Below are positions 1 through 3,891 of a stretch of DNA of 64,000 nt, one piece after another (position 1 is the stretch's first letter; each line of letters opens with the position of its first letter). The DNA comes from a virus. Both the position numbers and the translations under genes were made by a program. Under the pieces are notes generated by a model that ran no database searches, was not told the DNA's origin, and saw nothing but the letters and a program-made list of their open reading frames with translations. Where the stretch lies: IMG/VR virus record IMGVR_UViG_3300045988_163304, positions 1 through 64,000 of that record. One strand, written 5' to 3'.

Positions 1-816
1 TTAAAATTAAATAATACTAATTATTTTGACATATATTTATTTTAGGCAATTGATAAAAAACGAATAGAATATTTTTCAAAATACCCATGGTTATACCCCT
101 TTTTTCTAAAGAAAAAAATGGAAGGAAAAATAAAATTTTTAGGATTTTCTTATCATGATTCTCCTGAAAATTTAGAATAGTTTATTACAAGTTATAAATG
201 GGACTGTTGTTAGCTATCTTTAAATTATTTTGAATGGTTTTTAGGCACTGCTAAAGAAGCATATTCTATTTGTGAAAAATATTCTATTCCTATTTTTTGT
301 ATGAACCCTTTACGTGGAGGTAATAATATTTACTAGTTACCATTAGAAATGCGAAAAAATTATTCTTAGCACGACCTTTTAGAATTATCAATTAATTTTT
401 TACAAAATTTACCCGCGGTTAAAATAATTTTATTGGGAGCTGAAAATCCCAGTTAGATTGAAGAGACGAGTAAAATATTTTTAAACCGGAAAGCATTAAC
501 TGATTTACGGGTACAAGAAATTATTAATTTAATTTAGATATATCAATCTGTATCTATTATTCATTGTACTCAATGTGGTTATTGTTATTTAAAATGTCCT
601 AAATCAATAAATATTCCTTAGTTATTTAAATTATATAATGCATTATTATTAAATCCTTTTGACTTATCTCAACAAAAAGAGTATAATTATTTAATAAGAG
701 ATGAAAAAAATGGACCATATACTTGTTTAAATTGCGGTCAATGTGAAAAAGCTTGTACTCAAAAATTAAATATTCGAAATATTTTACATACTCAAATTTT
801 AGAAAGAAGATGGTGA
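1..816 (+). CDS. Partial (5'-truncated) aldo/keto-reductase-like oxidoreductase with C-terminal 4Fe-4S ferredoxin-type Cys motifs; several in-frame TAG codons
   Basis: Frame 1 reads ...KIKFLGFSYHDSPENLE(TAG)... then CxxCxxCxxxC-type pairs (CTQCGYCYLKCP; CLNCGQCEKAC), ends RRW-TGA at 814-816. Not in ORF track because it runs off the window start and contains TAGs. Confidence 0.45.
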
Positions 817-820
817 TAGT

Positions 821-2262
821 GTGGGAAGAATTAATAAAATTTGTATTTTATCAGGATCAAATTGTAATTTAAGATGTTCTTTTTGTTTTTTATATAAGAA
901 TAAATCATATTAGCTATTTGATAAAGTGATTAAAACTGCTTGGGAAAATGGCGAATATATTAAAAATATTTAGCAAGTATTAAAAATAATGAATGTTGAT
1001 ACAGCAGAAATTAATACTATAGAAATTTGGGGAGGAGAACCTTCTTTAGGGATTCATTTAATTACTCCAAATTTAGAAATTTTATTAAATTTATTTCAAA
1101 ATTTAAACACTTTTTTCTTATCGACGAATTGGACTATAACCCCAATTAATGATTTAATAGATTTCATAAAAGAAATTGATTGTAAAAGTAATAAAAAATT
1201 TACTCTTAATCTTTAGTTGTCTATTGATGGTTTAAATGGAGAAATTAATAAACAAGGCCATCCAGGTTCTGTAGAAAAATATATAAAAAATATGGATTTA
1301 TTTTTTGATTAGATAAATAAAATAAAATTAAAACATATATAGATTAATTTCTTATTTCATCCAGTTATTTCTCAAGAAGTAATTTTAAAAGAATTAAATA
1401 CGTATGATAAAATTGCTAAATATTATAAAGAAATGTTGAATCTTATTCAAGAATTTGATAATAAAAATTTTAATAAAGCCTGTTTTTTCCCATTATCTTT
1501 TGGATTTCCTGCTATTGCAAGCCCTCATAATTCTACATTAGAAGAAGGTATGGCTTTAGCAAATTGTGTTAAATTATTTGAATATGTTAAACACACTATT
1601 ACTCCAGAAGATGATAATAATCCAGCTTATGCTACTATTGGAGGATATGAATAGTTTACTCATTTAGATAATGTGGGTTTAGAGTGTGGAGAAAGTGGAT
1701 ATAAAACATTTACTATTTTACCAGATGGAACTATTGCTGAATGTTCAAGTAGTTATATTTGTGATTTTGAAGAATATAATAAAGAATTAAAAGAAAATAA
1801 TGATTTAGAACAATATAAAATTTCCTAGATTCGCAAAAAACATTATTTTAATCCAATTAATGCAACTCCAGAAGAAATAGAGAATTATCATTGGTATGTT
1901 TCAGATGGTGGTATTAGAGGAGTATCAGCAATATATAGAAATTTAAATTTAGGTTTATTAGATGAGCTCGCATTATCTAAATAGATTCCATATAGTTTTC
2001 ACTTAGACCCTGAAAAAGCTTTATAGCATTTAACTAATACTTTAGTTTTATAGTATTGTACTAGAGATAATACAATAGAAACTCATAATCCTTTTATTTG
2101 TAGCCCATCAACTTTTAGAAAATATTTTAATGGTATAACTGATTTAATTTATGAGCAAGATAGCGCACAAATTAAATATAATATTAACCATTATGGTAAA
2201 AATTTAAACACCTTAAAAATGAATCGATTAGAAAGACTAATAGAAGATGAGGACAATCTATG
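821..2262 (+). CDS. Radical SAM enzyme with SPASM/twitch-like C-terminal Cys clusters; many in-frame TAG sense codons; start uncertain (GTG 821?)
   Basis: CNLRCSFCF (CxxxCxxC) at ~863-890; continuous frame 2 through at least 10 TAG codons; covers track ORFs 989-1216 and 1433-1654; ends at TGA 2260-2262 overlapping the next ATG. Confidence 0.55.
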
Positions 2263-3618
2263 AAAAATTTTTTAATGCAAGATAAAGTTTTATTAAATGA
2301 TATTTTAGAACGACATTATTATAGTAAATTTAGACAAGGAGAAGGACGTTTAGAATTATTTTTATTGGGTAAATGTAAAGCTAATTGTGAATATTGTTAT
2401 TTAAAAAAACATGGACAAGAATTATATCCCATAGAATTACAATCTAAAGAAAATATTTTAAAAAATTATGAAAAAGTATTAAAATGGTATACAAAGAATA
2501 AATTTCATAATTAGTTAGAGTTTTTTAGTGGAGAATGGATAACTACTGATTTATGTATTCCAATTTTTGATATTACATATAATATTTTTAATAATGCTTT
2601 GCCGAATGCACGCCCTCCTTTAATTATTTTTCCAGATAATATGTTATTTATTTATAATAAAGAATTAACAGATTATATTTAGAAACAAATTGATCGATTT
2701 AAAAAAGATTTAAATATTTCATTAATTTTTTCTGCTAGCGTAGATGGAAAAATTTGTGATTTTGGTCGGACTGAAGTTGATGATACATTTTACAAAAATT
2801 TAATTAATTTTTTAGATAAAAATGATTTTGGTATTCACCCTATGATTAGTTCAAATAATGTAAAATATTGGATTGATAATTATTTATGGTGGCAAGAGAA
2901 TGCTCCTAAAAAAATTGCTGATAATATGATGTCTTTAGAAGTAAGAGATGAAACTTGGACTACTGAATCTATTGCCGATTTAATTAAATTTTGTGATTTT
3001 GTTATTGATTATAGAATTAAAAATGTTTATAATAATGATTTAGTAAAATTTGCCGATAGTATTTTTACTGGCCAAGGCTTAAATGGTGGATTATATCAAC
3101 CTTTTGCTATTAAAAAAACTACCAATTTTACAAATAATCGAGATTTCATAGATTGCTCTTTTTCTTAGGTTTTACCAATTAGAATAGGAGATTTATCTAT
3201 TGGTTTGTGTCATCGGCTTTATTATGATGATTTAATTATTGGGCAATATAAATTAAATGATTAGGGTGAAATATTAGATTGTAACCCAAAAAATCTTTCT
3301 TTAATTATTCTTAAAACTCATTTACGCCGAAGTTGTTTGCCTCATTGTGAAAATTGTCAATTTGTTGGTATTTGTGAATTATTTTGTTTAGGAAATGCTT
3401 ATGAAAATTCTATGAATCCTCTTATCCCAATTAAAGAAAATTGTGATATGCAAAAAGCTAAATATTCTTTTTTACTTTATAAATATAATTCATTAGGTTT
3501 ATTTAATCAAAATATAATTGATAATACACATTTATCTCTCATTGATAAACAATATTTATTAGATTTAAAGGATAAAGTTTTAAATGGATTGGAGGTAAAT
3601 AATTGTGGAGTCTGTTGA
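2260..3618 (+). CDS. Second radical SAM/SPASM-domain enzyme (TAG-containing)
   Basis: CKANCEYCY radical-SAM motif near the N-terminus; C-terminal CENCQFVGICELFC (Cx2Cx5Cx3C SPASM motif); track ORFs 2260, 2842 and 3337 share one frame joined by TAG codons. Confidence 0.6.
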
Positions 3619-3891
3619 TACTATATTTAAAACATTAGTAAATAATTATGTTAATATAGATTAGAGTTGTTTTTCAGAACAAGACGCTATGATTTATATT
3701 AATTTTTTACTTAATATATCTTTAGATAATTTATCTTCAATTAATATCTATGATTATGAAAAAATTATTTATTTTGAAATAATTTATCCTGATAATCATT
3801 CACTACAAGAAGCAATTACTCAACTTAAAAATAAAATTGCTCAAAATTTTATTTTTAAACAAAAGTTATTAAAACGATATGGACGATAAAA
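3605..3891 (+). CDS. Small hypothetical protein overlapping the rSAM 3' end (alternative start; one TAG)
   Basis: Frame-2 ORF containing track ORF 3689-3889; no recognisable domain. Confidence 0.2.

Follow-up and report, generated by a model that had tools for sequence, protein, structure and literature searches.

What do the two consecutive radical S-adenosylmethionine (rSAM) enzymes encoded at the very start of a 64,000-nucleotide stretch of viral DNA act on? The stretch, positions 1 to 64,000 of IMG/VR record IMGVR_UViG_3300045988_163304, is hereafter referred to as the window, and the two enzymes as proteins A and B. The original prediction, made from the sequence, hedged between the chemistry of peptides that are made by ribosomes and then modified post-translationally (RiPPs), cofactor chemistry and nucleic-acid modification. 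Of these, the RiPP-like, peptide-maturation branch is favoured by the folds of A and B and by a precursor-like gene, S, that lies upstream of the window. We consider it fairly probable that the genes specify a RiPP-like maturation system, in which A–B radical chemistry would act on the repeat tail of S, a small protein C would serve as recognition factor, and an aldo/keto reductase (AKR)–ferredoxin fusion as redox helper.

Under the standard genetic code the first 3.9 kb of the window are fragmented. Once TAG is read through, they resolve into four consecutive plus-strand genes with eight (gene 1), ten (A), four (B) and one (C) in-frame TAG codons. A suppressor tRNA with anticodon CTA was found by ARAGORN at 16549–16620 (+), within a set of 25 tRNAs; it enables TAG decoding in these genes. 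In alignments, TAG codons 132 and 388 of A correspond to a Gln that is invariant in 10 of 10 homologs, and TAG codon 141 of B is aligned to Q (35 sequences) or E (29). Because the TAG codons fall on these positions, we conclude that TAG is decoded as Gln in the window genes. The TAG recoding first proposed for the window start is borne out by the frames, which are open only with TAG read through, and by the CTA tRNA.

Gene 1 (1–816, +, TGA stop at 814–816) is cut at its 5′ end by the window edge and retains 271 of 364 amino acids; the complete 364-amino acid AKR-ferredoxin gene is present at 7466–8560 of L001, a 96%-identical contig (L numbers denote individual loci). Its product had been described as an AKR/ferredoxin-like protein ahead of the rSAM genes, and Pfam searches agree: it matches Aldo_ket_red (38.8 bits, cutoff 24) and, above cutoff with 30–32 bits, the 4Fe-4S dicluster families Fer4_8/9/10. 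It is an aldo/keto reductase fused to a C-terminal 2×[4Fe-4S] ferredoxin domain. The gene for protein A (480 amino acids; 821–2263, +) starts with a GTG 5 nucleotides past the gene 1 stop and ends with TGA. The ATG of the B gene (452 amino acids; 2260–3618, +, TGA stop) overlaps the stop codon of A (ATGA), and the C gene (94 amino acids; 3605–3889, +; GTG start at 3605, TAG at 3662, TAA stop) shares its first 14 nucleotides with the 3′ end of B. A scan for terminators and promoters was uninformative in this AT-rich DNA. A search of the window revealed no S-like gene and no further copies of A, B or C.

Protein A carries the motif CNLRCSFC and matches PF04055 with 34.1 bits (cutoff 29.5). The CX3CX2C cysteines (C15, C19 and C22; 863–886, +), the ligands of the SAM-binding [4Fe-4S] cluster, are invariant in 11 of 11 family members. 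Beyond this motif the alignment contains only three invariant cysteines (1685–2059, +), C289 (1685–1687), C308 (1742–1744) and C413 (2057–2059), with the spacing C289-x14-G-x4-C308 ... C413. No CX2CX5CX3C motif was found in the 11-member alignment and no match of A to the SPASM model TIGR04085 was detected. Since there are just three extra conserved cysteines, the auxiliary site of A is best described as Twitch-like with one ligand absent, and not as SPASM, as far as the alignment allows one to predict. Protein A also matches phrog_1802, an unnamed phage rSAM family. Its relation to B is confined to the rSAM core (hhalign 95.5%, 154 columns).

Protein B carries CKANCEYC plus CENCQFVGICELFC. 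In an alignment of 76 sequences its CX3CX2C motif (C39, C43 and C46; 2374–2397, +) is at least 90% conserved. The same alignment defines a seven-cysteine SPASM region (3154–3444, +) composed of C299, C317, C363-x2-C366-x5-C372-x3-C376 and C395; six of the seven are invariant, C395 is kept in at least 90% of sequences, and the first pair departs slightly from the usual SPASM spacing. The match of B to TIGR04085 is below cutoff (13.4 bits, E 0.079; cutoff 27), the conserved seven-cysteine pattern notwithstanding, and no Pfam match was obtained. The prediction of two consecutive rSAM proteins with CxxxCxxC motifs is therefore correct, while that of a SPASM domain in both stands for B and fails for A. 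Neither turned out to be a housekeeping, QueE-like rSAM enzyme without SPASM.

The B family is large and unannotated. Grouping at 90% identity gives 78 clusters, and a library clustered at the 50% level contains at least 418 representatives with E≤1e-30, a number that rises to 1,073 with E≤1e-3. Many members are encoded on contigs of 100–240 kb. Three full-length distant members, P0076, P0077 (L009, 10001–11185) and P0078, lack CX3CX2C and retain all seven SPASM cysteines. The A partners of these proteins are intact, which points to A as the essential source of radicals and to a B protein able to work chiefly via its auxiliary clusters. P0076–P0078 may represent pseudo-rSAM partners.

The best structural matches of A and B are enzymes that modify peptides or proteins, namely ChlB (scores of 21.7 and 17.9), TigE (21.4 and 17.8), CteB (19.7 and 15.5), anSMEcpe, an anaerobic sulfatase maturase (anSME; 19.6 and 17.1), and SuiB (15.5 and 13.6). 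The rSAM enzymes that act on sugars, cofactors or nucleic acids had lower structural scores than these five. The fold of A and B is thus that of SPASM/Twitch rSAM enzymes acting on peptides or proteins.

The genes upstream of the window were read from near-identical human-gut contigs. This revealed that the window start lies inside a larger cluster: the cassette is about 11 kb long, and positions 1–3889 of the window are its distal end. The cluster encodes, in order, a Cys-rich protein designated ‘D’, two small open reading frames (ORFs), S (176 amino acids), A2 (461 amino acids, 37% identical to A), B2 (446 amino acids, 44% identical to B), C2 (85 amino acids, E 5e-8 to C), two paralogous glycosyltransferase (GT)-like proteins with a DxD motif, AKR-ferredoxin, and the A, B and C proteins of the window. 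Because A2-B2-C2 precede A-B-C, the triad is duplicated in this phage. S is located about 6 kb upstream of window base 1, beside the first triad. A Cys-rich precursor had been anticipated just upstream of the window; a precursor-like gene is indeed there, and the expectation was wrong as to its composition, the S tail in this phage being rich in N, S and T and not in Cys.

The cassette was then followed through other genomes, with the genetic code chosen separately for each locus. A scan of IMG/VR yielded 28 loci and a scan of one genome per species yielded six, all in Clostridia. A is directly upstream of B in 31 of 31 loci, with overlapping frames. Among 33 non-redundant A-B pairs, the gene directly before A is S-like by strict assignment in 22 and on inspection in about 28. 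Held against the definition of a RiPP, S, which is outside the window, has the layout of a putative recognition region followed by a candidate core, together with the neighbour position in these 22–28 of 33 loci. The cassette occurs in TAG-recoded phages, in standard-code phages and in one apparently TGA-recoded phage; the last assignment is due to L014 (8475–11251), where A and B are broken under the standard and TAG=Gln codes and continuous only with TGA read through. AKR-ferredoxin homologs adjoin A-B in L028 and L031, and GT-like genes are also present at L009 and L014.

The S proteins consist of an N-domain of 30–130 amino acids, of about three sequence types, a single junction Cys, and a tail of 50–400 amino acids. 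Cysteines are nearly always absent from the N-domain, the first one being located where domain and tail meet. The drop in composition at this Cys, seen in 18 of 23 proteins, is 0.24, compared to 0.055 ± 0.031 at random positions. The tail is of low complexity, with N, G, S, H, T, Y and C enriched about 1.6–2.2-fold and I, L and M depleted. Its repeats are lineage-specific: NSTNGTNFQF in this phage, and (D/G)(S/T)RY (20 copies), NGWSQGA, TNTACNHGNRGHSTQ, GFNSGNY, HYSGHY and xxSNG pentads elsewhere. Between close relatives, with N-domains 93–99% identical, entire repeat units of the tail have been gained or lost. A large-database search with an N-domain profile returned close relatives only. One 497-amino acid S ORF (L024, 7014–8513) contains three in-frame TAG codons, with none or one in the adjacent A and B genes; it may depend on gene-specific TAG read-through or reflect a late-gene code switch.

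Proteins encoded downstream of B add a further element. The small ORF noticed at the 3′ end of the second rSAM gene is real, since homologs of C were found behind B in L001, L007, L009, L011, L012 and L033 (E values include 1.7e-7, 1.9e-6 and 6e-4). The ATG at 3689, from which only 66 amino acids would be encoded, is located within a conserved ‘DA..YL’ segment; the start is therefore predicted to be upstream of this codon, most likely the GTG at 3605. C has no match in Pfam or PHROG, and no PqqD-like domain was detected in it. The downstream proteins sort into three families according to which type of N-domain the S protein has. C of the window type accompanies S of the ‘LFAKLEAVR’ type, a second family accompanies the ‘SDL..WY...VKCRN’ type and a third the ‘MAFEW..I..G’ type. 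Because the downstream families follow the S type, we conclude that the cassette evolves as a unit.

How does this system relate to characterized ones? ChlB, whose targets are aromatic-X-X motifs, is a multiple cyclophane synthase (PMC12912966). The likeness of A and B to ChlB and to the three-residue cyclophane (triceptide) maturases is structural only; those are single enzymes with short bacterial precursors, whereas here an obligate A-B pair is accompanied by a much larger candidate substrate in a phage. Neither protein is a sequence member of the repeat-peptide rSAM systems, i.e. TigE (a poly-cyclopropylglycine synthase), GRRM, CXXX-repeat and His-Xaa-Ser: scores are 16 bits against a cutoff of 370 for TIGR03978, 19 bits against 350 for TIGR04115 and, for A and HxsB, 16.2 bits against 370; GrrM TIGR04261 is absent from the matches of A and B. 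The repeat motifs of these systems also differ from those of S, whose repeats are hypervariable between phages, and no HXS-repeat peptide was seen. The PapB model gave about 21 bits with A and with B (20.8 for A; cutoff 340), and, unlike the substrates of the CteB/SCIFF and PapB ranthipeptide maturases, many S tails have few or no cysteines past the junction. A scored 20.7 bits with YhhB NF041707 (cutoff 445) and 11.2 bits with AmcB NF041718 (cutoff 425), B matched neither, and PDB sequence searches with A and B returned nothing useful.

In one alternative, A and B would be maturases of the anSME or activase type for another enzyme, serving formylglycine formation in a sulfatase, a glycyl radical enzyme or a cofactor, with S an unrelated structural neighbour. 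We regard this as quite unlikely. The match of A to TIGR03942, the anaerobic sulfatase maturase model, is 17.4 bits against a cutoff of 349. No sulfatase is encoded in any of the loci, neither a sulfatase nor a glycyl-radical enzyme is conserved beside A-B, the S tails lack the C/S-x-P-x-R motif, and the S-A-B order is kept in phages that have diverged widely and that use two genetic codes.

Returning to RiPP-like maturation, we propose that its core would be an obligate, translationally coupled A-B rSAM pair with a lineage-matched small partner, C, encoded behind B. A is predicted to contain the rSAM cluster and one auxiliary cluster held by three cysteines, and B the rSAM cluster and two SPASM auxiliary clusters. 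The Cys-free N-domain of S would be the recognition or ‘leader’ part, bound perhaps by C. A and/or B would split SAM reductively, and the 5′-deoxyadenosyl radical would take hydrogen atoms at the repeated motifs of the S tail. The product would carry crosslinks of the cyclophane C–C or thioether type, or some other radical modification, and AKR-ferredoxin may be an accessory redox partner. As a substrate Cys does in CteB, the Cys at the S junction may act as a ligand to the open iron in the three-Cys cluster of A. In favour of the proposal are the fixed A-B order, the S-like gene ahead of most A-B pairs, the repeats, composition and Cys junction of the S tails, the matched families encoded behind B, the unmistakable PapB/SCIFF-type maturases next to S-like genes in L007, and the recurrence of AKR-ferredoxin beside A-B in L028 and L031.

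Several observations weigh against this proposal. Scans of S with Pfam, PHROGs and NCBIfam gave no match, known leader and RiPP families included, and its N-domain of 30–130 amino acids is long for a leader. A and B are below the cutoff of every named NCBIfam subfamily, and no peptide-maturase hidden Markov model cutoff is reached. No leader protease or exporter is conserved across the loci. The triad in the window is without an S of its own, as AKR-ferredoxin is directly upstream of it, and S is absent from a few loci (L039, L041 and L031). The adjacency of S could reflect co-expression and not an enzyme-substrate relation. Finally, the GT-like and AKR genes in the cluster of this phage would be compatible with sugar chemistry as well. 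In such a scheme the target of A and B would be a small molecule, such as a nucleotide-sugar or glycan precursor. The GT-like enzymes would transfer the resulting product, perhaps to S at its Ser/Thr/Asn-rich tail, with AKR-ferredoxin serving as sugar reductase. We consider this scheme unlikely, though somewhat less so than the sulfatase- or activase-type one; it, too, agrees less well with the structural neighbours of A and B and with the conserved synteny than RiPP-like maturation does.

The surroundings of the cassette bear on its function in two ways. In recoded jumbo phages it is located amid replication, nucleotide-metabolism or tRNA genes, which would fit an installation of DNA or tRNA hypermodifications by A and B. 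The L007 cassette is beside genes for DNA polymerase III alpha, NrdD/G, guanylate kinase and nucleoside deoxyribosyltransferase, that of L008 is near ThyX, and that of the window borders the 25-tRNA array. A U32-like protein, the Cys-rich ‘D’, is encoded in 10 loci: L001 (2–1081), L012–L017, L027, L033 and L034. This protein of about 300–360 amino acids has invariant E...C-x3-C...HY and F-K-L-x-G-R motifs; its matches to Peptidase_U32 (PF01136) are weak (3 of 7 members, best E 6e-4), and a PDB profile search with it returned nothing. The U32 family includes RNA hydroxylases, a point for nucleic-acid modification, and also O2-independent hydroxylases, so that ‘D’ could be a further tailoring enzyme. 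Like the other two alternatives, nucleic-acid modification fits the structural neighbours and the conserved gene order less well than peptide maturation does, and we consider it highly improbable.

The second kind of context was observed in three independent standard-code phages, where S-A-B is at the end of the tail module. It is preceded by genes for a baseplate wedge, a tail protein, a tail collar fibre and a minor tail protein in L022, by a tape-measure protein gene in L023 and by a gene for a central-tail-fibre-J-like protein in L025. In L038, a prophage carried by B35_35_AM_H, a cultured Oscillospiraceae isolate, S likewise comes after tail-collar-fibre-like and tail-fibre-like genes, as judged by their sequence resemblance to L022; A occupies 1902–3248 there, B ends at 4596 and DN occupies 4593–5111. 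In the lineage of the window the genes upstream of the cluster are not recognisable as tail genes, so the evidence for a tail-module context comes from the standard-code phages. The S product, which may be a virion component or a released peptide, is possibly tail-associated. A more specific version, which we put forward tentatively and hold to be rather doubtful, is that S is a tail-fibre-associated virion protein whose disordered repeat tail is radical-crosslinked (macrocyclised) by a heterodimeric A-B enzyme, with C or its counterparts as the matched recognition factor. If true, this would be the first case of RiPP-type radical chemistry maturing a structural protein of a phage, and the hypervariable tail of S would be an adhesion or host-range element, or a source of protease resistance. 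A second copy, A-B-DN, in the same isolate (L039) is beside relaxase, amidase, DNA methylase and Abi-like genes and has no S upstream; mobilisation may have separated this A-B pair from its substrate.

A 241-kb relative, L007, presents an elaborate arrangement. Two PapB/SCIFF-like rSAM/SPASM maturases are encoded there, with an S-like protein after each (6941–8730 and 11777–13626); the 419-amino acid PapB/SCIFF-type neighbour scores 146 bits. The S-like genes have Cys/Asp-rich tails, the second extremely so (TTTTTCCDCYGDCCDNDCCDSDSGGC...). Together with the A-B-C triad these maturases form a multi-maturase island adjoining NrdD/NrdG and DNA polymerase III alpha. A second family resembling ‘D’ in appearance (‘U’) occurs in L007 and L009.

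As to processing enzymes, the C39-like cysteine peptidase noted some 5 kb downstream does exist (9142–9642; PF13529, Peptidase_C39_2, 48 bits), wedged between tRNA genes and set off from the cassette by a homing-endonuclease-like gene and 11 tRNA genes. It was rejected as a leader protease and placed outside the rSAM system because it accompanies A-B in none of the other loci. A metallopeptidase-like gene (L045, 5260–6300; phrog_4191, 95 bits), which in the lineage of the window is situated three genes upstream of the cassette, is a possible candidate for a processing protease. The 25 tRNA genes of the window occupy 5453–21311 (+), with homing-endonuclease-like genes between them; genes of this kind are a PD-(D/E)XK_5 plus HTH gene at 4107–4739, a GIY-YIG gene at 10079–10894 and a probable GIY-YIG gene at 16651–17328. 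A transporter-like gene is located at 10970–12160 (its L001 counterpart matches PF00375, sodium:dicarboxylate symporter), and a multi-pass membrane protein gene at 12343–12939 is probably the formate/nitrite-transporter-like gene annotated in L001, where a papain-like Peptidase_C1 gene is annotated between the two.

Searches by tblastn with A, B and divergent B proteins against 50,697 GenBank phages yielded nothing or matches to the rSAM core only; the match in CPt10 is a 319-amino acid singleton with an architecture unlike A or B. By this measure A and B seem to be without a homolog in cultured phages. The presence of rSAM genes in a phage is less exceptional than the original prediction implied: large phages carry uncharacterised rSAM genes (PMC2853527), phage-borne SPASM-like rSAM genes without assigned role have been reported (PMC5332604), and phage SPASM-like rSAM proteins are also among BFVD matches, with TM-scores of 0.45–0.57. 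Campylobacter phages CP220/CPt10, marine T4-like phages and Erwinia phage Derbicus likewise carry rSAM/SPASM-like genes of unexplained role; these are shorter singletons or differ in architecture from A-B. No description of the cassette was found in literature searches, and a widespread A-B system seems not to have been described before. The enzyme superfamily and its logic are familiar; the obligate pairing, the type of candidate substrate and the phage setting are new.

Many rSAM genes of large phages have been unexplained since at least 2010, and here one coherent and abundant system is defined among them. It has a fixed gene order, a candidate substrate of striking architecture and three matched subtypes, and its hosts include TAG-recoded jumbo gut phages, standard-code tailed phages and prophages. 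Since an entire standard-code copy resides in the prophage of a cultured Oscillospiraceae isolate, the hypothesis is directly testable. If S is the substrate, phages would apply RiPP-type radical chemistry to their own proteins, which would add a class of post-translational modification to those of phages and supply a new source of repeat-peptide rSAM enzymes.

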